The notes under the pieces: generated by a model
What the model was told of the DNA's origin: nothing
The model's input: only the letters and a program-made list of their open reading frames with translations
Databases searched by the model: none
Program-made: the position numbers and the translations under genes
Part shown: positions 1,274 through 51,913 of the stretch, piece by piece
Layout: the number at the start of each line of letters is the position of its first letter
Position numbering within the stretch: the stretch's first letter is position 1
Assembly (NCBI GenBank): GCA_963674695.2
Contig: CAXXGI010000003.1
Coordinates: 96,001 to 160,000 of the forward strand
Source of the DNA: a bacterium
GTDB lineage: Bacteria > UBA10199 > 2-02-FULL-44-16 > JAAZCA01
DNA length: 64,000 nt
Reading direction: 5' to 3'

Positions 1274-1301
1274 GCAACTTTTCGTCCGATTCTGCCGATA
1301 T
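1274..1301 (+). promoter_or_regulatory. Putative alternative-sigma (sigma28-like) promoter
   Basis: GCAACTTTT-N11-GCCGATAT, 17 nt before ATG 1319; motif recurs before other orphan genes. Confidence 0.6.
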
Positions 1302-1318
1302 GGGGGCGGGAGCGATCA

Positions 1319-2695
1319 ATGACCGATATTCTGCACATGGATCTCTGTGGGCGGTCTTCACGGGGAGTGCTGTGCCGAGATGAGGCGTTTTCTGTGAAGC
1401 CATTCGGGCGGTCGCATCGCATCCGATCCTTCGGGATCATTATCGACGAAGCAGCAAGCCCCGAGCAGATCCGATTGATTCGACAGACACTCAAAGTATT
1501 TCCCGATCCGTTTCTTGAGGCCTTTGTTTCCGGTCGCTCGTTTCACGTGGTTTCGCGCGAGGAGTTCGACCGCTTGCCGCACACGATGGAGGCTTCTTTC
1601 TCTGCCAAAATGGGGATCAAGATTTCCGGAATGACCTGGTATCTGCGTGAAGATACCCTGTCCGCGTCATCTGCGCATTCGTTTTCATCGCGTCTCTGGT
1701 ATGCGATGAGTGCCCTGGTTGCGAATGAGCTGGAGGGTGAGCCAGAGTTTGATCGTCTTCGCTTTCAGGCAAACTTCGTTCGATACCTGCGCGGGCGTTT
1801 GGGAAATGCCCTCGCTCTTCCTTGGATCCCGCTCGATTTTTTTCTCAAGGGAGTTGATCCGCTCTATCAGATATTTTTCGATCTCTTGGCGGAGGCTCCG
1901 GATTTTTCCCATGGGCGACTTCGGGAACTCTTTCGAGAGGCCTTGGTTCGCTCCCGATCGCCGCACAAGCTGGCGCCTTCGCGTCGTCGTATGGCTGCCG
2001 AGGCGCTGACGCCCTGGTCGGCCCAACAGGCCTATGCACAGCTCGTGGCGGGCGAATACTCCTGGCACACCGGGGGGGGGAATGTGCTGCAGTTTTCACT
2101 GCAAAACGCCAAGGATCGTACGCGCCCTGAGAGCAGTCATCGTTTCAGCATGCACTATTACAACGACCCCCTCAACGAACTGCTAGGACAGGGGTTGGGA
2201 CGGCTGTTCCCCGGAACGGCGGTGGATGTCGTCTGGTCGCCCGGTTTGGTCGGTTCGTATGATACGGCAACTCCCAACGGCGTCGAACGCGAGACGGTGT
2301 TGCTCGGATCGCTCTTCGACCTGAATCTGAAATATGACGGATGGACGATGGGCCTGCATTCCTATCTTGGCCTTCCTGTTTCATTGCGCGAACGCGAGGA
2401 CGATCGCTGGGCGCCGCAGGATTTGTGCAGCAAGGCCTATGCGGGTCGATCGGTTGACGAGAATCCCTGTGATCGCGAGGGCCCCATTACCCTGCCGAAC
2501 GGAAGTGTGATCTGGAATCATCCGAAGGGGATGTGCGATCAGGGGTGGTCGGTTACGCCGCAATGGGAGGTGGGGTTTAAACTCACTGACCCCGAGAAGA
2601 GATTTTTTCTCGGGACGATGCTGATGGTGCCCTTTCCTCGAACGGAGGGGCGGTATTTTGGATTGATCCTGCGGTGGCAGCCCGACGCTCTATGA
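1319..2695 (+). CDS. Hypothetical protein (458 aa); C-terminal half beta-strand-rich
   Basis: Long ORF filling the gap, convergent with gltX; no recognisable family. Confidence 0.7.
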   Translation: MTDILHMDLCGRSSRGVLCRDEAFSVKPFGRSHRIRSFGIIIDEAASPEQIRLIRQTLKVFPDPFLEAFVSGRSFHVVSREEFDRLPHTMEASFSAKMGIKISGMTWYLREDTLSASSAHSFSSRLWYAMSALVANELEGEPEFDRLRFQANFVRYLRGRLGNALALPWIPLDFFLKGVDPLYQIFFDLLAEAPDFSHGRLRELFREALVRSRSPHKLAPSRRRMAAEALTPWSAQQAYAQLVAGEYSWHTGGGNVLQFSLQNAKDRTRPESSHRFSMHYYNDPLNELLGQGLGRLFPGTAVDVVWSPGLVGSYDTATPNGVERETVLLGSLFDLNLKYDGWTMGLHSYLGLPVSLREREDDRWAPQDLCSKAYAGRSVDENPCDREGPITLPNGSVIWNHPKGMCDQGWSVTPQWEVGFKLTDPEKRFFLGTMLMVPFPRTEGRYFGLILRWQPDAL

Positions 2696-4084
2696 AGAGA
2701 AACGCAGCGCTGCATCGATGCGTGCGAGGGAGCGTTCCTTCCCCAGGATGGCGAGTACCTCGTAGATTCCGGGGCTCACCGTCGTGCCGGTCATAGCCAC
2801 GCGCACCGGCTGTGCGAGTTTTAGCATCTTACAGTCGCGCTCCTGCATCATCGTTTCGAAGAGCTCTTTGAGGGGCTCCTCTTCAAACGAGGTCAGTTGG
2901 CTCAGGCGCTGACGCAGCTCGGCCAGCATTTCGCGATGGCTCTCCTTGAGCCACTTCTTTGCGGCATTGGGGTCGATTTCGATCTGTTCCCGAAAATAGA
3001 AGGCGGAGATGTCAGCGAGCTCCTTGAGGGTTCGTCCCCGTTCGCGTTCGGAGGCGATGGCGCGTGCGGCATAGGCGGTGTCGTTTGCGTCGAGGTCGAT
3101 CTCATTCAGAAATGGTTTTACCAATCCCACGAGATCCTCGTCGGAGATTTTCGCGAGGTGCTGGCTGTTGACCCAGCTCAGCTTTTCCACGTCGAAGATC
3201 GAGGGGGCGCTCCCCACCGAGGCGAGGTCGAATTTCTTGGTGAGTTCCTCGCGCGTGAAGATCTCCTGATCGCCACAGGACCACCCGAGCCGAGACAGGT
3301 AGTTCACCATCGCTTCCGACAGAAATCCCATCTTCTGGTATTCGGTCACCGAGACGGCGCCATGGCGTTTGGAGAGTTTTTTCTTGTCCGGTCCATGGAT
3401 CATCGGGAGGTGAGCGAATTCGGGGACCGGAAAGTCCAGCGCTTGGTAGAGCAAAACCTGCCGTGGTGTATTGTTGATGTGATCGTCGCCGCGGATGACG
3501 TGCGTGATCTCCATGGTGACGTCGTCGACGACGACGGTCAGGTTGTACGTTGGGGTTCCATCCGAGCGCGCGATGATCAGGTCGTCGAGTTCGGCGTTTT
3601 CAAACGTGATCGTGCCGCGGCAGATGTCGTGAAACGTGGTCGACCCTTCCGTCGGACAGCGAAACCGAATGGCGGTGGGCCGATCCGGATGAACAGGGCC
3701 ATTGCGGCAGGTGCCGTCGTACTTGGGTTTCCGGCCCTCGGCCATCGCCTGTGCGCGCTTGGCCTCCAGTTCTTCCGGCGTGCAGCTGCAGCGATAGGCT
3801 CGGCCCTCGTCGAGGAGTTTTTGGACATATTCCTTATAGAGCCCGGTTCGCTCGGATTGGTAGGTGAGCTCTCCATCCCAGTCCATGCCCAGCCAGCGCA
3901 TGCCTTCGAGGATCGACTGCTCGAACGCCTTGGTCGAACGCTCCTGATCGGTGTCCTCGATGCGCAGCAAAAAGGTGCCGCCGGCATTTCGGGCGAAGAG
4001 CCAGTTGAAGAGCGCTGTGCGGGCGCCACCGATATGGAGGTTTCCCGTCGGAGAGGGGGCAAAACGGACGCGTGGAGTTTTCAT
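2690..4084 (-). CDS. gltX: Glutamate--tRNA ligase
   Basis: RFAPSPTGNLHIGG (HIGH), LRIEDTD, HVIRGDDH, KKLSKR (KMSKS); start at MKTPRVRF. Confidence 0.97.
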   Translation of the reverse strand: MKTPRVRFAPSPTGNLHIGGARTALFNWLFARNAGGTFLLRIEDTDQERSTKAFEQSILEGMRWLGMDWDGELTYQSERTGLYKEYVQKLLDEGRAYRCSCTPEELEAKRAQAMAEGRKPKYDGTCRNGPVHPDRPTAIRFRCPTEGSTTFHDICRGTITFENAELDDLIIARSDGTPTYNLTVVVDDVTMEITHVIRGDDHINNTPRQVLLYQALDFPVPEFAHLPMIHGPDKKKLSKRHGAVSVTEYQKMGFLSEAMVNYLSRLGWSCGDQEIFTREELTKKFDLASVGSAPSIFDVEKLSWVNSQHLAKISDEDLVGLVKPFLNEIDLDANDTAYAARAIASERERGRTLKELADISAFYFREQIEIDPNAAKKWLKESHREMLAELRQRLSQLTSFEEEPLKELFETMMQERDCKMLKLAQPVRVAMTGTTVSPGIYEVLAILGKERSLARIDAALRFSS

Positions 4085-4094
4085 AGCGGCATAC

Positions 4095-5789: not shown

Positions 5790-5794
5790 ATGGA

Positions 5795-6928: not shown

Positions 6929-9898
6929 CTACCGTCTGGTGGGGCGGGCTTCTTTCTGTTTCTCTTCCCGCTGCATCCGCCGGCGTTGGATCTCCTGCTT
7001 TCGCTCGGCGCGGTTTACGGCCTTGCTCGTGTCGATCAGTTGGGCGATGTCATTCGAGACGCGGATTTTCGTCGGCCTTCGCAAGGCCCTGGATTCGCGC
7101 CGCGGAAGACGAATCTCTTTGTGGCGCGCCGATTCCGGGGCGGCCTCGGCCAGTGCTTCGATCGCTCCATTTATCAGCTTTCGATAGGGTTTCCCCGACG
7201 GTTGCTTGATGATCTGGAGCAGCGTTCGGCTGAGCAGGGGGTTCCAGCGTTTGCCGACGGCCTTGTGGTCGTCTTTGTTGGCCAGCCAGAGCAGCTGGTG
7301 GATCATTCCCTCCGAGGAGATCATCGTGCGCGGTTTGACCACGCTGGTCGGGATGCGTTCCCGCCGCGGGTTGGCGCGACCGCGCTGGCCGGGGCTCTCT
7401 TTGGTCGCCCTTTGCGGTGTGGTCGGTCCGAGGATCGGTTTGGTCGCTTCGGAAAAATTCAGGTAGATCAGATGCTGTTTGCGTCCGACCTGGTCGCTGA
7501 CGCCGATGCGCGTCGGATCGACGATGGCGTTGGCGATGGCCGTGATCGAGCGGTTGGTCTTGCGTGCTGATCGCATGCCCCTGTTTGTCGTCCCGTCGGA
7601 CAGAAAGCGGAAAAAATGCGATCGCCCCTTGCTGGTGAGGCGATCGATGAAGGCGATGAACTCCTCCGGATGCGCTTCGATGCGTTTGGCGAGCTGCTCT
7701 CGCTTCTCCGACAACAGGCGATAGAGCGGATGGGTGCGCGTGAGCTCGCTGCGCACGTACTCGGCGATCGCTTTTTTGCGCTTTGAATGCGACATCTCCT
7801 CAAACTGATCGAGTATCTTCGTTTGGAGGAAGAGTTCAACGGCGGTATCCGCGTGTTTTTCGGCCCCATGGGAAGCGCTGACGAAGCGATCGGACTGGGT
7901 CATGTACACGTCGATTCCTTCGATTCTATCGGTGAAGACGCTGGGATCGGCGCCCGGATTGTCCAGAAGGGCAAAAGCCCCTTTCATCCGATTCTGTTGG
8001 AGCTTGGCCGTTATGCTCTTGTGCAAGAGCTGCAGGATGAAGGCGCTGCGCTGTGCGTCCGTCTCCAAACGATCGAAGTGCTCTTTCTGCTCGGGGATGC
8101 GAAAGAGAATGCGATGTCTTCCGTTTCCACGCACGAATCGGAAATCCGGATCCCATCTGTGGATATAGCCTCCGTCATGCTTTGACTTGATCTTCATGAA
8201 TGCATCGTTGGTCATCGTCTCCCATCGCGGTCGTGGCGCGAATTTGCTCTTGTTGGTGTTGCGGCTTCCTTCGGATGCTTGTTCGCCGTCACGACTTCCT
8301 CCCGAAGGGAAGGCCGCGGTTTTCGAGGGTGCGTCTGCCATCTCCCCCGATGCTGTCGCATGCGATGGAGATTCGCTATAGGGTGAGGCGGAGTAGGCCT
8401 GTTCGGGGACGTCGTCGTCGGAATAGGTGTTGATTCCCTTGGGGAAGATGAGCGAGGAGTTGGTGCTCACGTTCACGGCGCTGCCGATCTGCGCGATGCT
8501 CTTTCCCTCGACCTGCGTCGGCATGGCGATGAGCAGGTCGTCGTCGGAGACGACGAGATCCACGCGGTCGCGACCGGCAAGTCGTTCCGAACGATCGTAT
8601 CCCTTGAGGATGGCATAGGGCAGGGCATGCGGGTCGTAGATCGGCGCGCGCACTTCATTCGTGACCTTCCCGCTCATCAGGTCCCAGACTTCATTCGTCT
8701 GCCGGTCGTAGAGGACCGGCTGCACATGGCCACTGCGCTTGATGTTTGCGGCGAAGACCTGGACGCCGAACGTCTGCCCCTCCGGGAGTTCGATCCCGCA
8801 GGCGGAGAGCGTGGCGAGAACGAGTTTGAGTCGCGCCTCGCAGTTTCCGCCCAGATAGAGGAGATAGTCGGTCAGGCGCGCGTCGTCCCGTTCATAGAGC
8901 ATGAGATAGTCGGTATAGAGCAGGTCCATGACCCGCCGGATCGCGGCGTGGCCCGCAAGGCCCTCCTTCGCGAGGATTGCGCGATAGCCTTCGATCAGCT
9001 CCGACCAGCGCGTCTGGAGTATTTCGTAGAGGCCGTCGATGGTCTCTTCGTTTCCATCAAGGCGTGCGCGCATCTCCTGATCGATCGAGAGATCGCCGAT
9101 GGTCGGCATGGCATCGCTGCCGTCGCGCTTCCATGCCCCGAGCTGTTGCTGGGTTTTCGCAATGATCGCTTCACGTGTGGGTGGCTCTTGGGCGGCCTGG
9201 GCGCGCAGGTGTGTGAGATCGCTGCTGTCGATCCGGGTGGATTCCTGCTGGCGTGCGCCGATGGGCCCGTCGAAGACGTCGGCGGCATCCCCGGTGTCCT
9301 TTCCGGCGAGTGTCGCTTCCTGTTGATGATTCAGGGCAGAGGGGGAGGAGTCGGTGTTGGTTTGATCAGGACGGGAGCTTGGAGTGGTTTTTCCCCTGTG
9401 GGGAGCATGGGGCTGTGGCTTTGTCTCCATCCATGCGATCGGGGCCGCGTGTAGGGCCATCGAACCGCCGAAACCGATGGCCATGCCAGCCCCCATTCCG
9501 AACAGGAGTGGAAGGCCGATTCCGGCCAGGCTCGTTCCCGCGGTGGTGGCGATGGTACTGCAGACTCGCTTTCCGGTCATGCCTGCCGATTCATTTCGCC
9601 CGAGATACTGGCGCCAGGCGCGGTTGGCAAAACGCGCTTCCCGGTCGGCGTGCGCCAGCGCCTGTTGCGCCAGATCGTTCTTTCCTGAATCGATAGAGGC
9701 CCGTGCGCGTTTCCAGAGTGATTGCGCCTGCGCCAGATGGTCTTCAAACAGATCGAGCGAATCGCCCGCCGATGAAAAGAAGTCGACCGAGGCGCGCACG
9801 ACCGAGAAGGTTTCGTCGCGAAAGTGTTCCCGCTCGAAGTCGAGCTGCTCCAGGCGCTGTTTGAGGAGTAGCGCATGTTTGGCGATGGAGGTCTTCAT
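6929..9898 (-). CDS. Large hypothetical protein (989 aa) with central transglutaminase/papain-like domain
   Basis: GGNCEARLKL...GHVQPVLYD...VWDL candidate Cys-His-Asp triad; Gly-rich hydrophobic segment near N-terminus. Confidence 0.75.
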   Translation of the reverse strand: MKTSIAKHALLLKQRLEQLDFEREHFRDETFSVVRASVDFFSSAGDSLDLFEDHLAQAQSLWKRARASIDSGKNDLAQQALAHADREARFANRAWRQYLGRNESAGMTGKRVCSTIATTAGTSLAGIGLPLLFGMGAGMAIGFGGSMALHAAPIAWMETKPQPHAPHRGKTTPSSRPDQTNTDSSPSALNHQQEATLAGKDTGDAADVFDGPIGARQQESTRIDSSDLTHLRAQAAQEPPTREAIIAKTQQQLGAWKRDGSDAMPTIGDLSIDQEMRARLDGNEETIDGLYEILQTRWSELIEGYRAILAKEGLAGHAAIRRVMDLLYTDYLMLYERDDARLTDYLLYLGGNCEARLKLVLATLSACGIELPEGQTFGVQVFAANIKRSGHVQPVLYDRQTNEVWDLMSGKVTNEVRAPIYDPHALPYAILKGYDRSERLAGRDRVDLVVSDDDLLIAMPTQVEGKSIAQIGSAVNVSTNSSLIFPKGINTYSDDDVPEQAYSASPYSESPSHATASGEMADAPSKTAAFPSGGSRDGEQASEGSRNTNKSKFAPRPRWETMTNDAFMKIKSKHDGGYIHRWDPDFRFVRGNGRHRILFRIPEQKEHFDRLETDAQRSAFILQLLHKSITAKLQQNRMKGAFALLDNPGADPSVFTDRIEGIDVYMTQSDRFVSASHGAEKHADTAVELFLQTKILDQFEEMSHSKRKKAIAEYVRSELTRTHPLYRLLSEKREQLAKRIEAHPEEFIAFIDRLTSKGRSHFFRFLSDGTTNRGMRSARKTNRSITAIANAIVDPTRIGVSDQVGRKQHLIYLNFSEATKPILGPTTPQRATKESPGQRGRANPRRERIPTSVVKPRTMISSEGMIHQLLWLANKDDHKAVGKRWNPLLSRTLLQIIKQPSGKPYRKLINGAIEALAEAAPESARHKEIRLPRRESRALRRPTKIRVSNDIAQLIDTSKAVNRAERKQEIQRRRMQREEKQKEARPTRR

Positions 9899-9907
9899 GT
9901 CATTGTA

Positions 9908-9934
9908 GTGTCGTCGGTTTTCGAGAAAAGTTGT
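9908..9934 (-). promoter_or_regulatory. Weaker copy of the sigma28-like promoter motif
   Basis: Minus strand ACAACTTTT-N10-GACGACAC, just upstream of ATG 9898. Confidence 0.4.
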
Positions 9935-9983
9935 GTCGAAAAAAAGCGAAGGGGAAAAAAGATAGAATTGTCGGGGGCGTGGT

Positions 9984-17466: not shown

Positions 17467-18117
17467 ATGTTTACCGGTATCATCGAAGGCGTGGGGGTTG
17501 TCCGCGCGATCAAAAAGAAGGGGGATGGTGCTGAGATCGAGATCGGATGCGATTTCGACCTCGAGCAGACCAACGTGGGCGACTCGATCTCGGTCAACGG
17601 TATCTGCCTCACCGTCACCTCGCGTTTGGGCAAGAGCTTCTGGGCGGATGCCTCGGTCGAGACGCTCATGACGACGAGTTTTTCCGATCTGAAGGTGAAC
17701 GATCCGGTCAACCTCGAGCGGGCGCTCATGGTCGGCAGCCGATTGGGCGGGCATATCGTCCAGGGGCATGTCGACGCCATTGGGCAAGTAGTTGATATTA
17801 AAAAACATTCCGATTCAACTGCCTTTACGATCGAATTTCCACGCAACCTTTCCCGCTATATTGTCGAAAAGGGTTCGGTCGCCATCGATGGGGTGAGCCT
17901 GACGGTCAATCACTGTGAAAAGGATCGGTTTTCCGTCATGGTCATCCCGCACACCCAGCTCAAATCCACGTTTCATGCGATGAAGCGGGGGACGCGGGTG
18001 AACTTGGAGGTTGACATCATCGGGAAATATGTTGAAAAGCTTACGTTTTTAGACAGCGCCCAGTATGAGAAGGATTCGAAAATCACGAAGGAGTTTTTGA
18101 AAAAACACGGATTTTAA
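17467..18117 (+). CDS. ribE: Riboflavin synthase (alpha chain)
   Basis: N-terminal MFTGIIE, NGICLTV, GGHIVQGHVD, KGSVAIDGVSLTVN. Confidence 0.96.
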   Translation: MFTGIIEGVGVVRAIKKKGDGAEIEIGCDFDLEQTNVGDSISVNGICLTVTSRLGKSFWADASVETLMTTSFSDLKVNDPVNLERALMVGSRLGGHIVQGHVDAIGQVVDIKKHSDSTAFTIEFPRNLSRYIVEKGSVAIDGVSLTVNHCEKDRFSVMVIPHTQLKSTFHAMKRGTRVNLEVDIIGKYVEKLTFLDSAQYEKDSKITKEFLKKHGF

Positions 18118-32130: not shown

Positions 32131-32150
32131 GTCCTAACCCGGTACTCTTC

Positions 32151-32177
32151 TTATCGGCGGAGGGGGGTAAAAGTTGC
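32151..32177 (-). promoter_or_regulatory. Putative sigma28-like promoter
   Basis: Minus strand GCAACTTTT-N10-GCCGATAA, 20 nt upstream of ATG 32130. Confidence 0.7.
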
Positions 32178-32193
32178 GCGGAAAATGAGGGTG

Positions 32194-32598: not shown

Positions 32599-32622
32599 GA
32601 GTTCCTCATCCTTTCACTGTTG

Positions 32623-32649
32623 TTATCGGCGCTGCGCAAGAAAAGTTGT
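32623..32649 (-). promoter_or_regulatory. Putative sigma28-like promoter overlapping the ogt 3' end
   Basis: Minus strand ACAACTTTT-N10-GCCGATAA; the final TAA is the ogt stop codon. Confidence 0.7.
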
Positions 32650-33165
32650 GTGGGAAATCTCAATGGTTTCCAAGGCCAACAACCGGCGTTTTCGCGCGAT
32701 GCCTCCCGAAAATCCGCCGATGCCTCCATCGGAGGCGATCACGCGATGGCAGGGGACGATGATCGGCACGGGATTGGCGCCGCAGGCTTGTGCCACCGCC
32801 CGATAGGCGCGCGGCCGTTTCACCGCACGTGCCAGCCACGCATAGCTTTTCGTGTGTCCCCACGGGATCGTGCGGATGGCCCGCCAGACCTCGCGCTGAA
32901 AGGGGGTCCCGGAGAGGAACAAAAGGGGGAGGTCGAATGCTTCCGCGTCCCCTCGGGCATAGCGCTCGAGCTTCACAAAGAGCGCACGCAGCCAGGCATT
33001 GGGCCGGTTTTCGACGGCCCCCCGCGGCAGGATGCGCAGGAGTTCTCGCCGGCCGCCCGAGAGCGCGATCGCACAGATTCCCTCGTCGGTGGCCCCCGCC
33101 CAAATGGAACCAAGTTCCGCGATCGTCCGATGATCGAGAAAGATGCGTTTCATTATTCTCTCCAT
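32623..33165 (-). CDS. ogt: Methylated-DNA--protein-cysteine methyltransferase
   Basis: GTPFQREVW, IPWG, RAVAQACGANPVPIIVPCHRVI; start 33165 or 33153. Confidence 0.95.
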   Translation of the reverse strand: MERIMKRIFLDHRTIAELGSIWAGATDEGICAIALSGGRRELLRILPRGAVENRPNAWLRALFVKLERYARGDAEAFDLPLLFLSGTPFQREVWRAIRTIPWGHTKSYAWLARAVKRPRAYRAVAQACGANPVPIIVPCHRVIASDGGIGGFSGGIARKRRLLALETIEISHTTFLAQRR

Positions 33166-33313
33166 ACACGTTTTCCTTATGGATTTGACCATTTTTTGAC
33201 GCCTTGCATTCCACAATGAGAATTTTTTCAGTTTGAGAGCATCAGCGCCGCTTTCTCATAACGAAAATCCTTATAAATTGAGTTGTTAAAGGCCATTTGC
33301 TCATGTCTTCATA

Positions 33314-33368: not shown

Positions 33369-33767
33369 ATGAAATCAAAGAGCGAATTGAGCGAGCATAT
33401 GGAGATCGTCGACGGCAACAGGCGCCAGAAGGGGCATTCCCCCCTCGAGCTCTGGGGCCGCATGCACCGTGGCGAGCGCAAGTCGCAGCGTGTCGAGCGC
33501 GCGCCCTTCGACAGCATGATGGCCGTCTTTGCCGATCGCGTGACCTATACGTTTATCCTCGAAAACGAGGTGGCATCGATTCATTTCGACCGCCGGCGCG
33601 GGGAGATCTTCTTTAAGGGCCATAATATCAGTAACATGGAGCTCACCCCCCCTCAACGCGAGGCCCTGATGCACATGGGCCAGATGCTCACGCGCGAAAC
33701 CCGCACGAAACCATTTTCTGCCGATTATGACGCAACTTTGGGTCGTCTCCTTGCCGATAATGAATAG
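33369..33767 (+). CDS. Hypothetical protein (132 aa)
   Basis: AAGGAG RBS before ATG; typical codon usage. Confidence 0.7.
   Translation: MKSKSELSEHMEIVDGNRRQKGHSPLELWGRMHRGERKSQRVERAPFDSMMAVFADRVTYTFILENEVASIHFDRRRGEIFFKGHNISNMELTPPQREALMHMGQMLTRETRTKPFSADYDATLGRLLADNE
33732..33760 (+). promoter_or_regulatory. Possible sigma28-like promoter for the 33929 ORF
   Basis: GCAACTTTG-N12-GCCGATAA in the 3' end of the upstream gene; separated from the ORF by a MITE. Confidence 0.45.
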
Positions 33768-33898
33768 AGACTATCGGGAGATGGGATTTTGTTGTCATTC
33801 CCGCGGAAGCGGGAATCTCGAAGTACTTAAAAAACCGAGATTCCCGCTTCCGCGGGAATGACAACAATCAGTAAAATCGTCTTTTCCCGACAGACTCT
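33766..33898. mobile_element. MITE-like element (imperfect TIR AGAGACTATCGGGAG / TTCCCGACAGACTCT) containing a REP doublet
   Basis: 12/15 TIR match; long perfect inverted REP arms ~33789-33868. Confidence 0.6.
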
Positions 33899-34570: not shown

Positions 34571-36923
34571 TGCAAGCCGCGCTCTCTTTGCCTTCACCTC
34601 TCCCTTCGCTTCGATTGTGGTCGCCCTCATCGCGGCCATGCTCTTTCTCTTCATTTCATTTCTCCTGCGCCGACGTCTTCATTTCATCATGGCGCTGCTC
34701 ATCGCAATCGCCTTCATCGTCGGCGCGGCATCGGCCGATCGCGCGATGGAGCGAGCACAACGCGTGAGCGTTTCGCTCGATACGAAGGCAGCGCTCGCCT
34801 GCCGTGCGCGCGTGATACGATTCCCGCAGATCAAAAGCTGGGGGACGCGCGTCGATGTTCAGCTCGATTCCTGTTCGGAAGGGAAGGGCGATCGGTTCGA
34901 GCCGGCCTTCGGCGCGGTGCGTCTGTCGATCCTCCACGGCGGCGACGTCCTTCTCCCCGGCGACCATATACAGTTTCGCGCGCGTTTCACGCGGCCGCGC
35001 GATTATCGCAACCCGGGGGCCTTCTCCTATGCGCGCTATCTCGCGGTACACGGCATCGGCGCGACGGGGCGTGTCGTCGGGAAACCCGAGCTGGTGCAGG
35101 AGGGCGCGGGCTTCGGGCGCATCGTCGGAGGATTGCGGCGGCGTGTGCGTGATTCGCTCGCGCAGGTCGCCGATCCGGCGCGTCGCGGCGTGCTCCTCGC
35201 ACTCGCCATCGGCGCGCGCGATGATATTACGGCCGAGCAGCGCGATCGATACGCCCGCGCGGGGTTGGCCCACCTCCTGGCGATCTCCGGTCTGCACGTC
35301 GGATATGTCGCGCTCCTCGTCTTTCTGCTCGCGAGGGTCTTCTTCGGCCTTTTTCCGCGCCTCTTTCTCCGCGTTCCGCTGCAGCGCCTGGCGGCAGCGG
35401 TCACGCTTCCGGCCATCTGGGGGTTCGTGGCGCTCGCGGCCTTTCCGATCTCCGCCGTGCGTGCCGCGATCATGATATCGGTCTTTCTCCTCGGCGTTTT
35501 GATCGGCCGTCGCCAGGACCTGCCGACGACACTCGCCGCGGCGGTCTGCGTCATCCTCATCATCCTGCCGCTCTCAGTCTTCGATGTCTCCTTTCAGCTC
35601 TCGGTCGTCGCGGTCGCCGGCATCATGCTCCTCGTTCCGCGCATTGCGCGAGCGCTGCCGGCGGGGCGAATGCGAACAGGGCGCGCGCTGCGCGCGGCTG
35701 CACTCCTGGGTGCGGTGACCGTCGCCGCCACGCTCGCCACGCTTCCGCTCGTCGCCGCGCACTTTCAGGTCGTCACCTTTGCGGGGCTCGTCACCAATCT
35801 CGTCGCGGTGCCGCTGGCGGGGATCGCGCTCGTGCCCCTGGTGGCCGTGGCACAGGTCGTTGCGCTCATCGCTCCCGCTATCGCTGCGCCGATCTGGTCG
35901 TTGGCGGCGGTTCTGGCCGGAGCGCTCGACGCTATTGCGTCGGCAGGGGCGCGCTGGGGCGATGCGCTCGTCTTTCGCTGGGCGCCGAGCCCGCTCGAAG
36001 CGGGGGGCGTGCTGTTGCTCATCGCCGCGGTTGTCTTCTGGCCGCATCGCACCTATAAACGATGGATCGGAACGGTCCTGGTGCTCGTCTGTCTCGCGGG
36101 CGTGGGGTTTGCGGGAGTTCATATGATGGAAAAACCGTCTCTCGAAATGGTGGTGCTCGACGTCGGACAGGGCGATGCGATCCTCGTGCGCTTCCCCGAC
36201 GGCAGCGACTGGCTCATCGATGGCGGGGGCAAGCGATATGGGTCGTTCGATGTCGGCGAGAAGGTGGTTGTCCCCGCGCTCCTGCGCCTGGGCGTGCATC
36301 ACTTGCACGGCGTCGTCCTCACGCATCCGCACCACGATCACTATCGCGGCTTGGGCGCCATCGCGCGCGCGTTCCAGCCGCCGCGCATTCTGACCAATGG
36401 GTTGGATGCGCCGCCGCAGGAGAAAGGACATTGGGCGCGCTTTCAAGCGCAGCTTGCAGAACTGAGCGTCCCGCTGGAAGTGGTTCCGGAGGGGAAGACG
36501 ACGTATGCCTTCGGCGGTGCGCAGATGCACGTGATACGTCTCCCTTGGCAGGCGGGGGATGATCTCAACGACTCCTCGCTCGTCGTCGATCTGCGCTTCG
36601 GTGCGCATCGCTTTCTGCTCATGGGCGATCTGGCCGAAACGGGCGAGGGCAGATTGTTGGCAATCGAAGGGGATCTGTACGCCGACGTCCTCAAGGTGGG
36701 GCATCACGGCAGCATCGATGCGACGACACCCGAATTGCTCTCCGCCGTCGATCCGAAGGTCGCCATCATCTCGGTGGGGGAGAACCCCTACGGCGTGCCG
36801 CACGCGGCAACGCTCGAGCGCTTGGGCGAAGCGGAGATCGATGTCCTGCGCACCGATGAGGATGGTGCCGTCGCGGTTGAAAGCGATGGGGAGCGATTGT
36901 TCGTCAAGTCCCTGACGCCATAG
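34536..36923 (+). CDS. comEC: DNA internalization competence protein ComEC/Rec2
   Basis: NPGAFSY, AGLAHLLAISGLHV, SFQLS, LDVGQGDA, THPHHDH, LKVGHHGS; start uncertain (34464-34536). Confidence 0.95.
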   Translation: MLLLACALTTGSASRALFAFTSPFASIVVALIAAMLFLFISFLLRRRLHFIMALLIAIAFIVGAASADRAMERAQRVSVSLDTKAALACRARVIRFPQIKSWGTRVDVQLDSCSEGKGDRFEPAFGAVRLSILHGGDVLLPGDHIQFRARFTRPRDYRNPGAFSYARYLAVHGIGATGRVVGKPELVQEGAGFGRIVGGLRRRVRDSLAQVADPARRGVLLALAIGARDDITAEQRDRYARAGLAHLLAISGLHVGYVALLVFLLARVFFGLFPRLFLRVPLQRLAAAVTLPAIWGFVALAAFPISAVRAAIMISVFLLGVLIGRRQDLPTTLAAAVCVILIILPLSVFDVSFQLSVVAVAGIMLLVPRIARALPAGRMRTGRALRAAALLGAVTVAATLATLPLVAAHFQVVTFAGLVTNLVAVPLAGIALVPLVAVAQVVALIAPAIAAPIWSLAAVLAGALDAIASAGARWGDALVFRWAPSPLEAGGVLLLIAAVVFWPHRTYKRWIGTVLVLVCLAGVGFAGVHMMEKPSLEMVVLDVGQGDAILVRFPDGSDWLIDGGGKRYGSFDVGEKVVVPALLRLGVHHLHGVVLTHPHHDHYRGLGAIARAFQPPRILTNGLDAPPQEKGHWARFQAQLAELSVPLEVVPEGKTTYAFGGAQMHVIRLPWQAGDDLNDSSLVVDLRFGAHRFLLMGDLAETGEGRLLAIEGDLYADVLKVGHHGSIDATTPELLSAVDPKVAIISVGENPYGVPHAATLERLGEAEIDVLRTDEDGAVAVESDGERLFVKSLTP

Positions 36924-37303: not shown

Positions 37304-40300
37304 CTATCTCCTCGCCGTCTGTTTCTGGTTGTGCCGGATCGGCAGCGTCAACGCGACCGTCGTCCCCTTGTGTGCCTTGCTCTGAACGGTGATCGTCCCC
37401 TTGTGCGCGGTGATGATGCCGTGGCAGATGGAGAGCCCGAGCCCGATCCCCCTGCTTGCCTTTTTCGTCGTGAAGAAGGGGTCGAAGATGTGCGGGAGGG
37501 TATCAGGGTTGATGCCCTCGCCCGTGTCGATGCACTCCATGCGGAGGGCCTTTTGCTTTTTGAGGGGTTTGGTCCGGATGGTGAGGGTTCCTCCATCGGG
37601 CATCGCGTCGCAGGCGTTGTTCACGATGTTGATGCAGACCTGCTGGAGTTGGTTGCGGTCCCCTTCAATTGAGGGAAGATCAGTCCCGATCTCTTTGACG
37701 ACACGAATATTCGTCTTCCGCAGTCTGTTCCGGCAGAGCAGCAGCGCCTGGTCGATGAGCGTGAGCGGGTCGATCGTGGTGCAATCGAACGAGGAGGGTC
37801 GTGAGAATTCGCTCAGTCCCTTGACGATGCTGGCCATATACCGCACCGCCTCGATCATCATCGTGCCCTCGTTTGTTCCGGGAGTGCCGCTCACCTCTCG
37901 ATCGCACCGGGCCTCCAGGAGTGCGGTCAATCCGGTCAGCGGGCTGTTGAGTTCATGGGCGACTCCAGCGGCGAGGCGTCCGATGCCGGCGAGTTTGTCC
38001 GCCTGGATGAGTTGCTCCTGTGTCGTGTGCAGTTCTGCCGTGGTGGTTTTGACAGCGCCCTCCAGCGCATGCGCTTTTTGTTCCAAAGCAACCTCTGCGC
38101 GCCAGCGTTCGGTGATGTCCTCCAGGGCGAGCAGGATGAGCGGTGTCTCCTCATCTTTCTGGTGCAGCTGCCGGGCATTGAGCAGGATCATCCGCTCCCC
38201 GATGCCGGGAAAATGGCGAGCCACCTCGAAGGATTCAAAACCGCCGCCCTGCGCGATGATCGCCTTCAGGTGCTTGAGCAATGCAGGGATCTTCCATTCC
38301 TGATCGCCCAGATCGACGAGCGCCTGCCCCTCCGTTTTCCTTTTGGTCTGATGAAAGTGCGTGCAGAACGCCTTGTTGGCGGAGACGACGCGCAGCTTCG
38401 CATCGAGGACGAGCAGCGGTTCTCGAACGGTGGCGATGATGCCTTCGGCAAAATCGCGGGCGCGCTGCAGCGCGATCTGGCCTCGCTTGATGTCGTCGAT
38501 GTCCAGGAACACGAGCACCACGCCGTCGATCCGGTTGTCGTGGGTGCGGTAGGGCCGGATCTGCAGCCGGTACCATCGTTTGTTTCCGGTTTGCAGCTCC
38601 TGTTCAAACACGGTGAGTGTGTGCAGGACGCCATCGATGGCCTTTTTCAGGCCCGGCAGGTCGATCGGCGTACGAATCTGCGTGAATGCGCGCCCGATGT
38701 CGGCCGATGTCAGTCCCAGGACGTTCTTCGTCGCTGGGGTGATTTTTCGCACGCGCAGGTCGCCCCCCAGCATGACGATGGGGATCGTGATGCTCGTGAT
38801 CAGGTTGTCGAGCACATCGTTGACCTGTCCGAGCTCATCATTGCGGTTCTGCAGCTCCTCGTTGACCGTGTTGATCTCTTCGTTGGTCGACTGCAGCTCC
38901 TCCTTGGCGGTCTCGAGCTCCTCGTTGGTGCTCTGCAACTCTTCGTTGGCCGAGAGGATCTCCTCGTTGCTGGTGATGAGCTCCTCGTTCGAATGGTTCT
39001 GCTCTTCGATGATCGACTGCAGAAATGTTTTGGTCGCGTCGAGTTCGTGTTTGAGTTGGGCGCATTCGCGTCGTTCGGCGCTGCTCCTTCCCCGAGTGGA
39101 GGACACGGCAGCAGTGGTCTTATCGCTCGCTGCCATCGGCATCTCCTCGAAGAGGATGATGAAATACCGATCCTTCGAACGAGGGGCCTTGAGCGGGGCG
39201 ACCTCCAGGGCGACCGAACGGGTCCGCCCATCCTCTTCCTTCAAACGGATGCCCTCGCGGCGTGCGGAGCGGCTTTTCTTGCGCACCGCGGTGATGGCGC
39301 TGTGCAGCTCGGGCAGCAGCTCGCTGCGCGCCATCTTGAGCAGGTTCATGCTCGGGCGACCGGGCGGCTGATCCAGATAGGGGCCGGTCCGTCCCCGAAA
39401 CTGGAGGATCTCCATGCGGTCATCGACGACGACGCAGGCGGGGACGAAGCGCCGAACCAGGTGCTCGTCCGTGGCGCGCTGCAGATCGAACGCCGGGGAA
39501 AGGGTCTGTTCGATCATCTTCGCAGGCAGCCCGGCAGGCGCTCGTTTCGGGAGGAAGAAGGGACGGCGTGCATGTGAAGGGCCTTCGCCCCGGGAATAGA
39601 GTCGATGTTTATGATCGACCGCTTGAAAGAGATCCGCAAACCCGCTGGGGACCTCGGCCGAGCCGAGCAGGAGAAAGCCCCCCGGTTTGAGGGCATAGTG
39701 AAACAGCGGCATGACCACGTGCTGCAGGGTCTTGCCGAGATAGATCAGGACGTTGCGACAGCTGATCAGATCGAGCTGCGAGAAGGGCGGATCGCGGGTC
39801 ATGTCCTGGCGCGCGAAGATGCACATCTCGCGGATTTCCTTGCAGACCTTGAATCCCCCATCGTGCGGCTTGAAGAAGCGTTTCCGGCGCGCGGGCGAGA
39901 CCCCCTGCATGGCCTTGGTCGTGAAGATGCCGGCGCGCGCCTTCTCGATCGCCTCCTCGCTGACGTCGGTGCCGAAGATCTGGACCGGCGATGCGATGCC
40001 GCGCTTGTGGAGATATTCGCTCAGGCAGATGGCGAGGGAGAAGACCTCTTCGCCGCTCGAACAGCCCGGAACCCAGACGCGAATCGGCTCTCCGCGCTTG
40101 GCCCCCTCGGCAATGCGACCAAAGGCCTTGCGCGCAAGCGCGGTGAAGACGGCGCGGTCGCGAAAGAATCCGGTGACGCCGATGAGCACATCGGAGACGA
40201 GGTGGTGCATTTCATCCGGGTTCTTGCGCAGCTCGGCGGCATAGTTCGCCAGTGTCTCCATGTGCTGCAGCAGCATGCGTCGATGAATGCGCCGCTCCAG

Positions 40301-41077
40301 CGTGGTCTGCTTGTAGTGCAGAAAGTCGATGCCCGTCTCGTCGCGCAGCAGCGCCAGGATGTGCTGAAGAAAGACATGGTCCTCAGCGGTGAAGGAAGCG
40401 GGGCCGGCCATTCTCCGGCGCGCTTTCAGCGGTTGCCGTCCCAGTCGAATCAGTTCCTGCGCCATCTCCGCGGGAGAGAGCACCATGTCGATGCATCCGG
40501 AGGCGATGGCCTTGCGCGGCATGCCGTCGAACCGGGCGCCGGCCGGGTTCTGCGCCAGCGTGATGCCGCCACCATTCTTGATGGCCGCAACACCCTGGCT
40601 CCCATCCGAGGCCGTCCCCGACAGGACGATGCCGATGGCCCGCTCCCCCGCATCGGTGGCCAGCGCGGTGAAGAAGGCATCGATCGGCAGGTGTTGCGCA
40701 CTGCCCTTTGCGCGCGGACGCAGGATGAATGTTCCGTTCTTGATGCCGATGGTCCCCGCCGGCGGGATGACGTAGACGTGATCGGCCTGAATCGGCATGC
40801 CATCGGCAACACTCGCCACGGGCATGTCGGTGGTCTTGGCGATCAGCGCCGGCAGGATGCTCTCGTGATCGGGATCGAGGTGTTGGATCAAAACGAACGC
40901 CATGCCCGTCTTGGAGGGGAGTGCGGCAAAGAATTCCGAAAACGCCTCGAGCCCCCCGGCGGAGGCGCCGATGCCGATCACAAAGGAGGGCTTTATCTTG
41001 CCAGGGCTCTTCTTTTTTCGAACGGCCTTGGGTTGCTTCTTCGGTGTGCGACTGCGTTTCACGTTTCGCGGCGTCAT
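37304..41077 (-). CDS. CheB/CheR fusion protein with coiled coil, PAS domains and histidine kinase
   Basis: GASAGGLEA/QHL/DG (CheB); WVPGCSSGEE, DLISCRNVLIY (CheR); NEELQSTNEEL; AGVAHELNSPL; N box, DTGEG, PFFTTK, GLGL. Confidence 0.95.
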   Translation of the reverse strand: MTPRNVKRSRTPKKQPKAVRKKKSPGKIKPSFVIGIGASAGGLEAFSEFFAALPSKTGMAFVLIQHLDPDHESILPALIAKTTDMPVASVADGMPIQADHVYVIPPAGTIGIKNGTFILRPRAKGSAQHLPIDAFFTALATDAGERAIGIVLSGTASDGSQGVAAIKNGGGITLAQNPAGARFDGMPRKAIASGCIDMVLSPAEMAQELIRLGRQPLKARRRMAGPASFTAEDHVFLQHILALLRDETGIDFLHYKQTTLERRIHRRMLLQHMETLANYAAELRKNPDEMHHLVSDVLIGVTGFFRDRAVFTALARKAFGRIAEGAKRGEPIRVWVPGCSSGEEVFSLAICLSEYLHKRGIASPVQIFGTDVSEEAIEKARAGIFTTKAMQGVSPARRKRFFKPHDGGFKVCKEIREMCIFARQDMTRDPPFSQLDLISCRNVLIYLGKTLQHVVMPLFHYALKPGGFLLLGSAEVPSGFADLFQAVDHKHRLYSRGEGPSHARRPFFLPKRAPAGLPAKMIEQTLSPAFDLQRATDEHLVRRFVPACVVVDDRMEILQFRGRTGPYLDQPPGRPSMNLLKMARSELLPELHSAITAVRKKSRSARREGIRLKEEDGRTRSVALEVAPLKAPRSKDRYFIILFEEMPMAASDKTTAAVSSTRGRSSAERRECAQLKHELDATKTFLQSIIEEQNHSNEELITSNEEILSANEELQSTNEELETAKEELQSTNEEINTVNEELQNRNDELGQVNDVLDNLITSITIPIVMLGGDLRVRKITPATKNVLGLTSADIGRAFTQIRTPIDLPGLKKAIDGVLHTLTVFEQELQTGNKRWYRLQIRPYRTHDNRIDGVVLVFLDIDDIKRGQIALQRARDFAEGIIATVREPLLVLDAKLRVVSANKAFCTHFHQTKRKTEGQALVDLGDQEWKIPALLKHLKAIIAQGGGFESFEVARHFPGIGERMILLNARQLHQKDEETPLILLALEDITERWRAEVALEQKAHALEGAVKTTTAELHTTQEQLIQADKLAGIGRLAAGVAHELNSPLTGLTALLEARCDREVSGTPGTNEGTMMIEAVRYMASIVKGLSEFSRPSSFDCTTIDPLTLIDQALLLCRNRLRKTNIRVVKEIGTDLPSIEGDRNQLQQVCINIVNNACDAMPDGGTLTIRTKPLKKQKALRMECIDTGEGINPDTLPHIFDPFFTTKKASRGIGLGLSICHGIITAHKGTITVQSKAHKGTTVALTLPIRHNQKQTARR

Positions 41078-43636: not shown

Positions 43637-43644
43637 GATCGGGG

Positions 43645-43671
43645 ATATCGGCGGTTGGACGAAAAGGTTGC
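43645..43671 (-). promoter_or_regulatory. Putative sigma28-like promoter
   Basis: Minus strand GCAACCTTT-N10-GCCGATAT, 8 nt upstream of ATG 43636. Confidence 0.65.
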
Positions 43672-43730
43672 GTGGTTTTTTGTGCGGAATTGTTACTGTA
43701 AGTGGCCGATATAAAAGGTATTTTCGAGTT

Positions 43731-49457: not shown

Positions 49458-49464
49458 CGAGGGG

Positions 49465-49700: not shown

Positions 49701-49735
49701 AAAACAGAAAGTACAAGTTACGAGTTACGGCCTTT

Positions 49736-50653: not shown

Positions 50654-50693
50654 CGGCCGTGACACGTAACACGTAACACGATGGACTCGGAAG

Positions 50694-50829
50694 TGTCATC
50701 CCCGTGAAAACGGGGATCTCGATGGATTCGGAAGTGTCATCCTCGTGCAAACGGGGATCTCGATGTGCCGTGAGAATCGAGATTCCCGCCTTCGCGGGAA
50801 TGACAGGCTTGGGTTCGCGGGAATGACAA
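50694..50829. repeat. REP cluster (two tandem half-units plus inverted halves)
   Basis: Same 41-bp period and GTGAGAATCGAGATT spacer as 49465-49700. Confidence 0.85.
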
Positions 50830-50854
50830 CGATCAAACGGAAACGAAAAAGGGC

Positions 50855-51658
50855 ATGAAAAGCATTACCGCAAAAATCGGGATGGGGTTGGTGGCGATGA
50901 TGCTCGTCATGGCGCTGGCTGCGCCGTGGCTGGCACCGCACGATCCGCAGACCTATCATGTCGATCTCGCGTTTGCCGGGCCGTCGGCCGAATATCCGCT
51001 GGGCAACGACGCCGACGGGCGCGACATCCTCTCGCGCATCATCTACGGTTCGCGCGTCTCCCTCGGCATCGGGCTGGCGGTGGTCGTTGTCTCGCTCTGT
51101 GTCGGCACGATCATCGGACTCTTCGCCGGCTATTGGGGTGGGTTCACCGATCGGATCTTTCAGTTCGTCTCCGATGTCTTCCTCGCCTTTCCCGGTTTTC
51201 TCTTCGCCATCGCGGTGGCCGCCTTCCTGCGTCCGGCCGTGATCAACGTGGTGATCATCCTCTGCATCAAGGGCTGGGTGACCTACGCGCGACTCGTGCG
51301 CGGCCAGACGCTTTCCCTCAAGGAGCGCGAGTTCGTTCAGGCCGGGCGCGCCATCGGCGTGCGCATCCCTCGGCTCTTCGTGCGCCACCTCTTTCCCAAC
51401 ATGGTCGGGCCCGTGGTCGTCGCCGCCAGCTTCGGCATGGCCGGCGTCATCATCATCGAATCGTCGCTCTCCTTTCTGGGTCTCGGTGTTCCGGTCACCA
51501 CGCCTTCCTGGGGCGGCATGATCGATCAGGGGACGCAATACCTGCTCATCGCACCGCACCTGTCGATCTTCCCCGGCATCGCCATCATGATGATCGTGCT
51601 CGGCTTCAACTTCCTGGGCGACGGCCTGCGCGACAAACTCGCGCCGAGAGGGCGGTAA
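50855..51658 (+). CDS. Peptide ABC transporter permease (OppC/DppC family)
   Basis: LGNDADGRDILSRIIYGSRVSL, ARLVRG, ESSLSFLGLG, FNFLGDGLRD. Confidence 0.95.
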   Translation: MKSITAKIGMGLVAMMLVMALAAPWLAPHDPQTYHVDLAFAGPSAEYPLGNDADGRDILSRIIYGSRVSLGIGLAVVVVSLCVGTIIGLFAGYWGGFTDRIFQFVSDVFLAFPGFLFAIAVAAFLRPAVINVVIILCIKGWVTYARLVRGQTLSLKEREFVQAGRAIGVRIPRLFVRHLFPNMVGPVVVAASFGMAGVIIIESSLSFLGLGVPVTTPSWGGMIDQGTQYLLIAPHLSIFPGIAIMMIVLGFNFLGDGLRDKLAPRGR

Positions 51659-51698
51659 GGGCCGTAACACGTGATCAGAACGGTTCATCTGTTTTGTC

Positions 51699-51865
51699 TG
51701 TCACTCCCGAGGCCCCCTTGCCTGTGGGGTAATCGGGGATCCAGCCCGTTGTTGTCATCCTCGCGAAAGCGGGGATCTCGATGGGTTGTGAAAGTCGAGA
51801 TTCCCGCCTTCGCGGGAATGACACCCCTTGGTTTTGTCATCCCGAGCGGAGCCGAGGGATCCCTT
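51699..51865. repeat. REP cluster (mixed subtypes)
   Basis: TGTCATCCTCGCGAAAGCGGGGATCTCG...GCGGGAATGACA plus GTCATCCCGAGCGGAGCCGAGGGATC. Confidence 0.8.
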
Positions 51866-51886
51866 GTGAAGTGACACTTTTTTTGC

Positions 51887-51913
51887 GCAACTTTTTCCTC
51901 GTCGATGCGATAA
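51887..51913 (+). promoter_or_regulatory. Putative sigma28-like promoter
   Basis: GCAACTTTT-N10-TGCGATAA, 7 nt before ATG 51921. Confidence 0.6.

Follow-up and report, generated by a model that had tools for sequence, protein, structure and literature searches.

Several genes without recognisable relatives, scattered through a 64-kb stretch of DNA from a bacterium of the lineage UBA10199 (assembly GCA_963674695.2, contig CAXXGI010000003.1, positions 96,001 to 160,000; hereafter the window), are preceded by a short motif made of two blocks, which raises the question of whether these genes belong to one regulon and, if so, which sigma factor reads it. An earlier note on this DNA had listed seven copies of the motif, compared them to sigma-28 promoters with an unusual −35 element and proposed that a lineage-specific sigma factor co-expresses dispersed orphan genes, possibly as an effector arsenal. 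Here, we report that the motif is a real genome-wide promoter-like signal, and that it probably marks promoters read by an alternative sigma of the FliA/WhiG (sigma-28) type, namely a protein of 289 amino acids (aa) encoded outside the window (G000:C3:8530-9399). Both the reading of the motif by this protein and the co-expression of the genes behind it are suggested by sequence comparisons, which we present below along with the competing explanations.

A two-block promoter-like signal throughout the genome

All seven listed copies are present in the window, each on the same strand as the open reading frame (ORF) that it precedes. The distance of 7–25 nucleotides (nt) between motif and ORF given by the earlier note holds for six of them but not for the copy at 33730, which lies 167 nt before ORF 33929, and of the two copies described as weaker, the one at 9936 indeed scores lower (24.5 bits), whereas that at 33730 reaches 31.2 bits (all site scores are in bits from a weight matrix trained genome-wide). 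The pattern CAACYTTT-N10-11-GCCGATAW occurs four times in the window and not once in any of 100 dinucleotide-preserving shuffles, and GCCGATAW alone is found 12 times, compared with 3.8 ± 1.9 times by chance (maximum 8). In site density, the window is ordinary: it has eight sites, the genome averages about five per 64 kb, and among 50 bins the count rises as high as 11.

Three third-order Markov genomes served as controls in refining the two-block matrix and determined its threshold, and the matrix converged on ACGCAACTTTT-N10(-12)-GCCGATAAT. Genome-wide, it recovers 235 sites of at least 18 bits (mean of 18.7 in the Markov genomes) and 198 sites of at least 22 bits (3.0 in the Markov genomes). 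Bases lying outside the seed pattern are conserved as well: among the 48 genome-wide matches to the loose pattern AACYTT-N10-14-CCGATA, the four positions before AAC are A in 29, C in 42, G in 39 and C in 39 cases, and the AT following CCGATA is also conserved. Genes were called with our own crude codon-usage caller (2316 genes, covering 83% of the genome). Relative to these calls, 212 of the 235 sites are intergenic, intergenic DNA making up 16.7% of the genome (binomial p ~1e-135), and 182 have a same-strand gene start at most 200 nt downstream, against only 58 with a gene start behind the motif on the opposite strand. The upstream and co-oriented enrichment expected by the earlier note is thus observed at the scale of the genome. 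When in-frame upstream starts are allowed, 188 sites have a co-oriented start within 150 nt, and the gap separating the −10 octamer from the start codon has a bimodal distribution (35 sites at 3–10 nt, 26 at 11–20 nt and 118 at 21–80 nt).

The geometry of the motif is that of a sigma-28 promoter, as the earlier note had supposed, except for its −35 element. Over the 235 sites, the −10 consensus is G-C-C-G-A-T-A-A-(T) and matches GCCGATAA, including the GC of the extended −10, while the −35 consensus, ACGCAAC-TTTT, shares only AA and the following TTT with TAAA(GTTT) or TCTAAAG; sites of the canonical type (TAAA-N14-18-GCCGATA) number only two in the genome. In 163 of the 235 sites, TTTT is followed by a spacer of 10 nt, which leaves 14 nt between the −35 heptamer and the −10 octamer, i.e., sigma-28 spacing, and the others are longer by one (33 sites) or two nucleotides (38 sites), with a single site at N13. 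Paired blocks might also be scattered between genes as the bipartite operator of a regulator that binds DNA, or as a short element that is repeated or mobile, and this genome is rich in other intergenic repeats (tandem arrays of heptamers and a palindromic element). Nevertheless, we regard such a non-promoter origin as highly improbable: conservation is confined to the two boxes, the spacer and flanks being free, the spacing hardly leaves the range of 10–12 nt, the sites are strongly oriented towards genes, and one of the boxes is the sigma-28 −10 consensus. For an operator in particular, the 35 sites located 3–10 nt before a start codon are a poor match, for they fit a −10 box at a leaderless start.

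The FliA/WhiG-like sigma factor as the probable reader of the signal

Sorting with NCBIfam models yields seven genes of the sigma-70 family: RpoD, an RpoH-like sigma (298 aa, C3:481058-481954, above the cut-off of the sigma-32 subfamily), three extracytoplasmic function (ECF) sigmas, one FliA/WhiG-like sigma (the 289-aa protein) and a 923-aa protein. The motif pattern was then compared over 41 genomes of the group, and the FliA-like sigma over 93 genomes of the phylum (which here amounts to a single class). The motif is present in 41 of the 41 genomes, at 3–55 copies each (0–1 per strand for a backwards control), and the FliA-like sigma in 40 of them (50–76% identity), the one miss being a genome only 78% complete; at the level of the phylum, it is found in 91 of the 93 genomes. 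In public records, where the assemblies bear only the labels Deltaproteobacteria, Proteobacteria or Pseudomonadota bacterium, its orthologues go under “sigma-70 family” or “FliA”. The genome encodes in this protein a dedicated factor that could be the lineage-specific sigma proposed by the earlier note, but both the sigma and the motif are phylum-wide rather than limited to the source organism. The ECF, RpoH-like and 923-aa sigmas fit the phyletic pattern worse.

An ECF sigma could be a candidate for a motif of layout AAC...CGA, given that the −35 GCAAC and the 16 nt separating it from CGAT resemble ECF promoters, and a 31-bit site does lie about 0.9 kb upstream of an ECF operon (C1:31327-31905). 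Similarly, the 923-aa sigma bears the motif before its own gene, as a 30-bit site 7 nt from the ATG. Yet proteins like the ECF sigma L003 occur in only 10 of the 41 genomes, and several motif-rich genomes (e.g., G023 and G025) gave no ECF candidate at all, while orthologues of the 923-aa sigma are restricted to 5 of 40 relatives, when the motif is in every genome. Moreover, the 923-aa sigma has the same region 4.2 helix as RpoD (VTRERIRQI), which predicts a −35 of the TTGACA type and not that of the motif. That an ECF sigma or the 923-aa sigma reads the motif thus appears exceedingly improbable.

In favour of the RpoH-like sigma, almost all genomes of the group have it (38 of 41), and sigma-32 and sigma-28 both belong to group 3 with similar spacing, sigma-32 promoters being of similar layout with a C-rich −10 (...CCATAT). 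Even so, we find it very unlikely that this sigma reads the motif. The upstream region of clpB contains a separate promoter of sigma-32 type (CTTGTCT-N13-CGCCATAT), and no heat-shock chaperones or proteases figure among the 25 listed of the 56 Pfam families matched by a set of 111 targets. Three genomes, G019, G023 and G038, have 38, 55 and 28 motif copies, respectively, along with the FliA-like sigma, but no RpoH-like sigma was found in them; a search at E 1e-40 returned none in G023 (97% complete) or G038 (91% complete). Upstream of groES, we observe TTGACT...TATAT plus a CIRCE operator, and TTGACA is enriched upstream of genes in general (113 occurrences for 20 expected), so that RpoD and the RpoH-like sigma appear to have other promoter signals of their own. 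Finally, GCCGATAA is the −10 element of FliA/WhiG according to a recent structural study (PMC12784957), which argues against a sigma-32 reading.

The 289-aa protein has the architecture of group 3 sigmas, with domains 2, 3 and 4 and no region 1.1, and its residues 44–271 align with full-length FliA/WhiG chains. Its closest relatives among solved structures are WhiG (6PFV, 6PFJ; E 9e-26) and FliA (9WSF/9WSM, 6PMI, 1RP3; E 7e-23). The protein retains W-x-P-R in region 2.4/3.0. As for region 4.2, its recognition helix reads LSKSW[T/V][S/C]RLH in 30 of 30 orthologues (L-S-K-S-W-T-S-R-L-H in the source genome); at this helix, the solved structures of FliA and WhiG have S/T-E-S-R-V-S-Q, and the flagellar FliA paralogues of two relatives (G002 and G033) have E-S-R-I-S-Q. 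As described in PMC12784957, the Pseudomonas aeruginosa sigma-28 promoter has TCTAAAG at −36 to −30 and GCCGATAA at −15 to −8, and the open complex published in 2026 shows S224 and Q228 of the region 4.2 helix making base-specific −35 contacts. When aligned to this protein, the 289-aa sigma keeps the serine, but the glutamine is replaced by arginine and the intervening arginine by tryptophan, and the same register puts ACGCAAC of the motif at −36 to −30. The FliA/WhiG-like sigma sought on the advice of the earlier note was found, and its recognition helix differs from that of true FliA at positions that contact DNA. Four −35 positions and the contacting helix seem to have changed together, with the −10, the spacing and the TTT following the −35 all canonical, which is a correlation, not a proof.

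Secretion cluster, targets and proposed programme

The gene of the 289-aa sigma is located on contig C3, inside a cluster for a non-flagellar type III secretion system (T3SS; Table 1). SctV scores 793.7 bits with its own model (cut-off 692), compared with 683 bits with the FlhA model (cut-off 772), and SctR 233 bits (cut-off 208.6), the FliP model remaining under its cut-off. SctN is over its cut-off, as is the FliI clade 2 model; SctU (351.8 bits) falls just under 358 and SctJ (129 bits) under 162, whereas FliH/SctL, YscO/FliJ and FliN were identified by Pfam. With SctV and SctR scoring as Sct over their flagellar counterparts, the export apparatus appears to be of the injectisome type. The FliG-like and FliO-like genes of the cluster are weak matches, and such genes are unusual for injectisomes. 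Of the cluster ORFs tested, none matched a needle or translocator family. The genome, which is scored as 100% complete, also holds FHIPEP, FlhB/SctU and YscJ/FliF genes, but neither Flagellin_N nor Flg_bb_rod nor a hook domain; of the 41 genomes of the group, 40 have FHIPEP but only two have flagellin. Three secretins are encoded in the genome, none of which could be assigned to the T3SS. One of them is in the window, where a gene running in from upstream (1-807, plus strand) ends in a Pfam Secretin domain (118-645) directly before the site at 1272.

In 16 of 30 loci (L100-L129), a conserved 141-aa ORF is preceded by a co-oriented site of the N12 class scoring at least 19 bits, some 1.1 kb upstream of the sigma gene. 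This 141-aa neighbour and the 165-aa one on the other side are conserved with the sigma in 19 and 29 of the 30 loci, respectively. The 165-aa protein, whose start overlaps the stop of the sigma gene, combines a variable N-terminal part of 100 residues with a near-invariant C-terminus of 65 residues. The latter may resemble a T3SS inner-rod (SctI) protein. Profiles of the 141-aa and 165-aa proteins matched no solved structure at E up to 10, and neither protein belongs to a known family. Both proteins are candidates for a partner of the sigma or an anti-sigma factor. A complex prediction for the sigma and the 165-aa protein scored 0.01, the mark being 0.32, and counts neither for nor against binding.

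In total, the motif precedes 187 distinct first genes, corresponding to about 302 kb or about 10% of the genome (226 of the 2316 called genes when tight operons are included). These targets are longer than other genes (median of 411 aa vs. 293 aa), more often exceed 1000 aa (18 of the 187 first genes vs. 47 of 2129 others) and have a lower GC content at third codon positions (0.706 vs. 0.749). They are also strongly depleted in known families. In the window, a Pfam family is found in one of seven targets, the 923-aa sigma, compared with 20 of 23 non-targets (Fisher p 0.0009), which bears out the orphan bias claimed by the earlier note; those non-targets include GltX, IlvC, SHMT, RibD, RibBA, an enzyme of the phosphoglucomutase family and Ffh, as well as ComEC, DacB, an Opp-like transporter, NagZ and RmuC. 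Outside the window, 8 of the 10 best-scoring targets of the compared loci are likewise devoid of any Pfam family. Where families do exist, those listed (25 of the 56 matched by the 111 targets) comprise Peptidase_S8 (3), SLT (3), PilZ (2), GGDEF, LysM, Peptidase_M15, C25, S41, an AmiA-like amidase, LRR and HEAT, but no flagellar family. The regulon therefore contains proteases, cell-wall hydrolases and proteins of cyclic di-GMP (c-di-GMP) signalling, to which the operons of the T3SS apparatus must be added, and not the ordinary flagellar or housekeeping genes that the earlier note had itself named as speaking against its proposal. The “papain-like” and “methyltransferase-like” targets that it described were not seen either, the only methyltransferase being Ogt (32623-33216), whose gene is not itself a target but has a promoter-like site within its 3′ end.

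For proteins without a hydrophobic N-terminus, we compared residues 2–25 between 133 targets and 658 controls (ATG start plus Shine-Dalgarno). Serine, threonine and proline together account for 22.0% of these residues in targets and 16.9% in controls (p 9e-9), lysine and glutamate for 9.4% and 14.0% (p 7e-10), and both shifts are specific to the N-terminus. An N-terminus rich in Ser/Thr/Pro and poor in Lys/Glu is a known bias of T3SS secretion signals. That many of the targets lacking a Sec signal are T3SS substrates is conceivable on these compositional grounds, and we advance it tentatively. As for the effector arsenal of the earlier note, it gains a link through the T3SS cluster, the effector role itself remaining conjectural.

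Taken together, these observations are best explained by the following scheme, in which the 289-aa sigma would keep the −10 reading (GCCGATAA) and spacing of its family, while its changed region 4.2 helix would recognise ACGCAAC at −36 to −30 instead of the TCTAAAG bound by true FliA. Its gene, lying in the T3SS cluster and driven by its own motif, would be under positive feedback. Once active, the sigma would turn on about 190 transcription units (about 10% of the genome), among them two T3SS operons, the 923-aa protein as a second sigma, and genes for secreted hydrolases and many lineage-restricted proteins. Around one fifth of the promoters would yield leaderless mRNA, given their closeness to the start codon. 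A bolder extension, which we deem rather unlikely, is that the phylum as a whole has an early-branching injectisome still governed by the late-gene logic of flagella, the 141-aa or the translationally coupled 165-aa protein, both co-transcribed with the sigma, being a secreted anti-sigma akin to FlgM. Contact with prey or host would then open the secretion channel and release the sigma, whereupon the approximately 190 promoters would fire and deliver about 140 fast-evolving effectors without Sec signals, together with secreted hydrolases.

A number of points weigh against the assignment of the motif to the 289-aa sigma and against the programme built on it. To begin with, the link between sigma and motif is correlative, since RpoD is universal in the phylum too and is set aside only through its canonical sigma-70 promoters. 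The best model for the 289-aa sigma, TIGR02479, yields 132.4 bits, below the curated cut-off of 189.6; because of this score, and yet with WhiG and FliA as its closest relatives, the protein appears to be a divergent member or a sister group of FliA/WhiG, and not a member by the curated threshold. No anti-sigma factor of the FlgM type was found in the genome with the Pfam model, the autoregulatory site is not seen in 14 of the 30 loci (some of which are cut at contig ends), and the motif is not kept before the orthologues of the 923-aa sigma (0 of 5 loci in relatives). On the side of the targets, the bulk comparison, in which 111 targets (48,785 residues) match 56 Pfam families, compared with 127 for as many non-targets (35,487 residues) of those regions, counts families and not proteins; it covers 111 of the 133 targets in the compared loci (of 187 in total), the other 22 being 15 that are longer than 1000 aa or shorter than 60 aa and 7 beyond a limit on total residues. 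The N-terminal test depends on the starts chosen by the crude caller, though it held with the ATG and Shine-Dalgarno controls. Finally, approximately 20–25% of the targets have Sec- or lipoprotein-like N-termini, and therefore not all of them can be T3SS substrates.

The window, related systems and significance

The sites and target ORFs of the window are listed in Table 1, together with the gene order around the sigma gene.

Table 1. Motif sites and target ORFs of the window, followed by the order of genes in the T3SS cluster on contig C3.
Feature	Position	Strand	Description
Promoter-like site	1272..1302	+	GCGCAACTTTT-N11-GCCGATATG, 28.2 bits; end of −10 octamer 17 nt 5′ of the ATG at 1319
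Target ORF, 458 aa	1319..2695	+	No Pfam family; directly 3′ of the secretin gene ending at 807
Weaker site	9907..9936	-	ACACAACTTTT-N10-GACGACACT, 24.5 bits; about 9 nt from −10 octamer to ATG, leaderless-type spacing
Target ORF, 989 aa	6929..9898	-	No Pfam family
Top-scoring site of the window	32150..32179	-	GCGCAACTTTT-N10-GCCGATAAG, 34.2 bits
Target ORF, 426 aa	30850..32130	-	No Pfam family
Site in 3′ end of ogt (32623-33216)	32622..32651	-	ACACAACTTTT-N10-GCCGATAAC, 32.6 bits
Target ORF, 134 aa	32194..32598	-	No Pfam family
Site of the N12 spacer class	33730..33761	+	ACGCAACTTTG-N12-GCCGATAAT, 31.2 bits; followed by a palindromic repeat element, start of ORF 33929 at +167 nt
Possible target ORF, 213 aa	33929..34570	+	No Pfam family; upstream of ComEC (34464-36923)
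Site	43644..43673	-	ACGCAACCTTT-N10-GCCGATATC, 27.4 bits; ATG 8 nt past the −10 octamer, leaderless-type
Target ORF, 819 aa	41177..43636	-	No Pfam family, no usable protein-atlas match
Site	51885..51914	+	GCGCAACTTTT-N10-TGCGATAAC, 30.0 bits; ATG 7 nt past the −10 octamer, leaderless-type
Target ORF, 923-aa sigma factor	51921..54692	+	C-terminal sigma domain
Doubtful extra match, absent from the earlier note	17841..17871	+	23.6 bits, poor −10 block GTCGAAAAG; located within a coding region, shortly ahead of ribBA (18130), and likely to be spurious or else a weak internal promoter
T3SS cluster, part 1	C3, motif site 4376		Then 180-aa orphan, TPR protein, SctJ
T3SS cluster, part 2	C3, after SctJ		Four-helix-bundle gene
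T3SS cluster, part 3	C3, motif site 7672		Then 141-aa ORF (C3:7743-8168), sigma, 165-aa ORF (9399-9896)
T3SS cluster, part 4	C3, after the 165-aa ORF		FliG-like gene, FliH/SctL, SctN, YscO/FliJ
T3SS cluster, part 5	C3, further on		FliN/SctQ, FliO-like gene, SctR

Two of the targets were followed into relatives. Homologues of the 426-aa ORF (32–36% identity) exist in only 3 of 40 relatives, and all three have a co-oriented motif about 40–65 nt before the start deduced from the match coordinates. The C-terminal 238 residues (686–923) of the 923-aa sigma are 36% identical to RpoD of the same genome, its N-terminal 660 residues match no Pfam family and have no usable protein-atlas match, and its orthologues share 43–47% identity with it, two of them as tandem copies in G018.

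Other features of the window and the genome are worth recording. Consecutive ORFs of 388 and 1156 aa (window 56718-61347, plus strand) have no Pfam family and no motif before them; therefore, not every orphan carries the signal. On the minus strand, window 37304-41077 encodes a 1257-aa fusion of a CheB methylesterase, a CheR methyltransferase, PAS domains and a histidine kinase, this genome having no flagellin gene. A palindromic element resembling repetitive extragenic palindromes (...TTGTCATTCCCGCGGAAGCGGGAATC...) is present at about 33780-33830 of the window, where one copy lies between the site at 33730 and ORF 33929, and in many other intergenic regions, its k-mers AATGACAA / TTGTCATT and GGGAAT being enriched between genes. 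Tandem arrays of the heptamers CGAGTCA / CGAGTTA also occupy many intergenic regions (e.g., G000:C1:819110-819190); GAGT[CT]AC has 417 matches genome-wide, and such k-mers head the list of those enriched upstream of genes. Lastly, a 28.6-bit site (G000:C2:623151, plus strand) lies inside the gene just upstream of rpoD, which is probably dnaG by its position, and could be an internal promoter feeding rpoD.

Among known systems, the closest in function is the HrpL/hrp-box regulon, in which an apparatus and scattered genes are also under one alternative sigma, although the approximately 190 promoters predicted here are several times the size of that regulon. HrpL is an ECF (group 4) sigma with another box, whereas the 289-aa sigma belongs to group 3, and would thus work alike without being a member. 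According to two studies on Pseudomonas syringae, Erwinia and Dickeya, a single sigma drives both the T3SS apparatus and scattered effectors through one box, and the hrp box has been used for finding effectors genome-wide (PMC3879358, PMC2957411). A second likeness is with WhiG, the closest solved relative, the c-di-GMP control of which is echoed here by the PilZ and GGDEF targets, but WhiG is not known to be linked to any secretion system. Its promoters are canonical (TAAA / GCCGATAA), and its direct targets are few. In Streptomyces and Rubrobacter (PDB 6PFV, 6PFJ, 7LQ4), this protein, which belongs to the sigma-28 family, governs non-flagellar programmes, as stated in PMC8325347 and PMC12871210.

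Closer to a large regulon of mixed content is FliA of Bdellovibrio bacteriovorus, for which PMC3627812 reports TTAAG-N16-CCGATA in 92 of 140 mapped attack-phase promoters and a regulon extending well beyond the flagellum, to proteases, surface proteins and many uncharacterised proteins. The likeness lies in a promoter of sigma-28 type serving a large programme that includes proteases and unknowns. However, Bdellovibrio is flagellated, flagellar genes are still under the control of its FliA, whose −35 is near-canonical, and its promoters were mapped by 5′-end sequencing, whereas the source genome has neither flagellin nor rod gene, another −35, an altered region 4.2, its sigma in a T3SS cluster and predicted promoters. 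As for Chlamydia trachomatis, it has likewise kept a sigma-28 member as a non-flagellated bacterium with a T3SS, the genes of which are scattered, but chromatin immunoprecipitation sequencing located this sigma at only two promoters, hctB and tsp (PMC12282069), compared with about 235 predicted sites here, T3SS operons included.

With the canonical FliA/FlgM pair of E. coli and P. aeruginosa, the 289-aa sigma has in common the −10 octamer, the spacing, the sigma family and the location of its gene among type III export genes, but it differs by the −35 (ACGCAAC for TCTAAAG), the contact residue (arginine for glutamine), the non-flagellar targets and the failure to detect FlgM. True FliA paralogues with a canonical helix coexist with the 289-aa type in the only two flagellated relatives. 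In these genomes (G002 and G033, loci L170-L175), a second FHIPEP and the second, canonical FliA stand beside the flagellin genes, and the flagellin promoters of G033 read CAAGTTT-N12-13-CCGTT(A/C)(A/T)T, another variant of sigma-28. Our literature search, which covered articles without their supplementary files, yielded no paper on a sigma of the sigma-28 family governing a non-flagellar T3SS.

Were the more mundane reading to be right, we would be left with one more large regulon of an alternative sigma factor, mainly useful for genome annotation. If the assignment to the 289-aa sigma is true, a simple sequence signal would reveal everything that a T3SS programme produces (the apparatus, a downstream sigma, hydrolases and about 140 proteins of unknown function) in a phylum of which little more than assembled genomes is known, and scanning its 93 genomes for the signal could yield lists of candidate effectors and show how these turn over. 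The assignment would also provide a natural case of a shift in −35 specificity (Gln-to-Arg and Arg-to-Trp, for TCTAAAG to ACGCAAC) with the −10 reading fixed, and would imply that a flagellar sigma can be kept with a secretion machine after the loss of the flagellum, so that the retained sigma bears on the open question of the origin of injectisomes from flagella and of the accompanying regulatory rewiring. Should contact indeed trigger the programme through a secreted anti-sigma, the motif would amount to a catalogue of the effectors of an uncultured phylum that lives by predation or in association with hosts, and the system itself to a living intermediate in the regulatory evolution from flagellum to injectisome.

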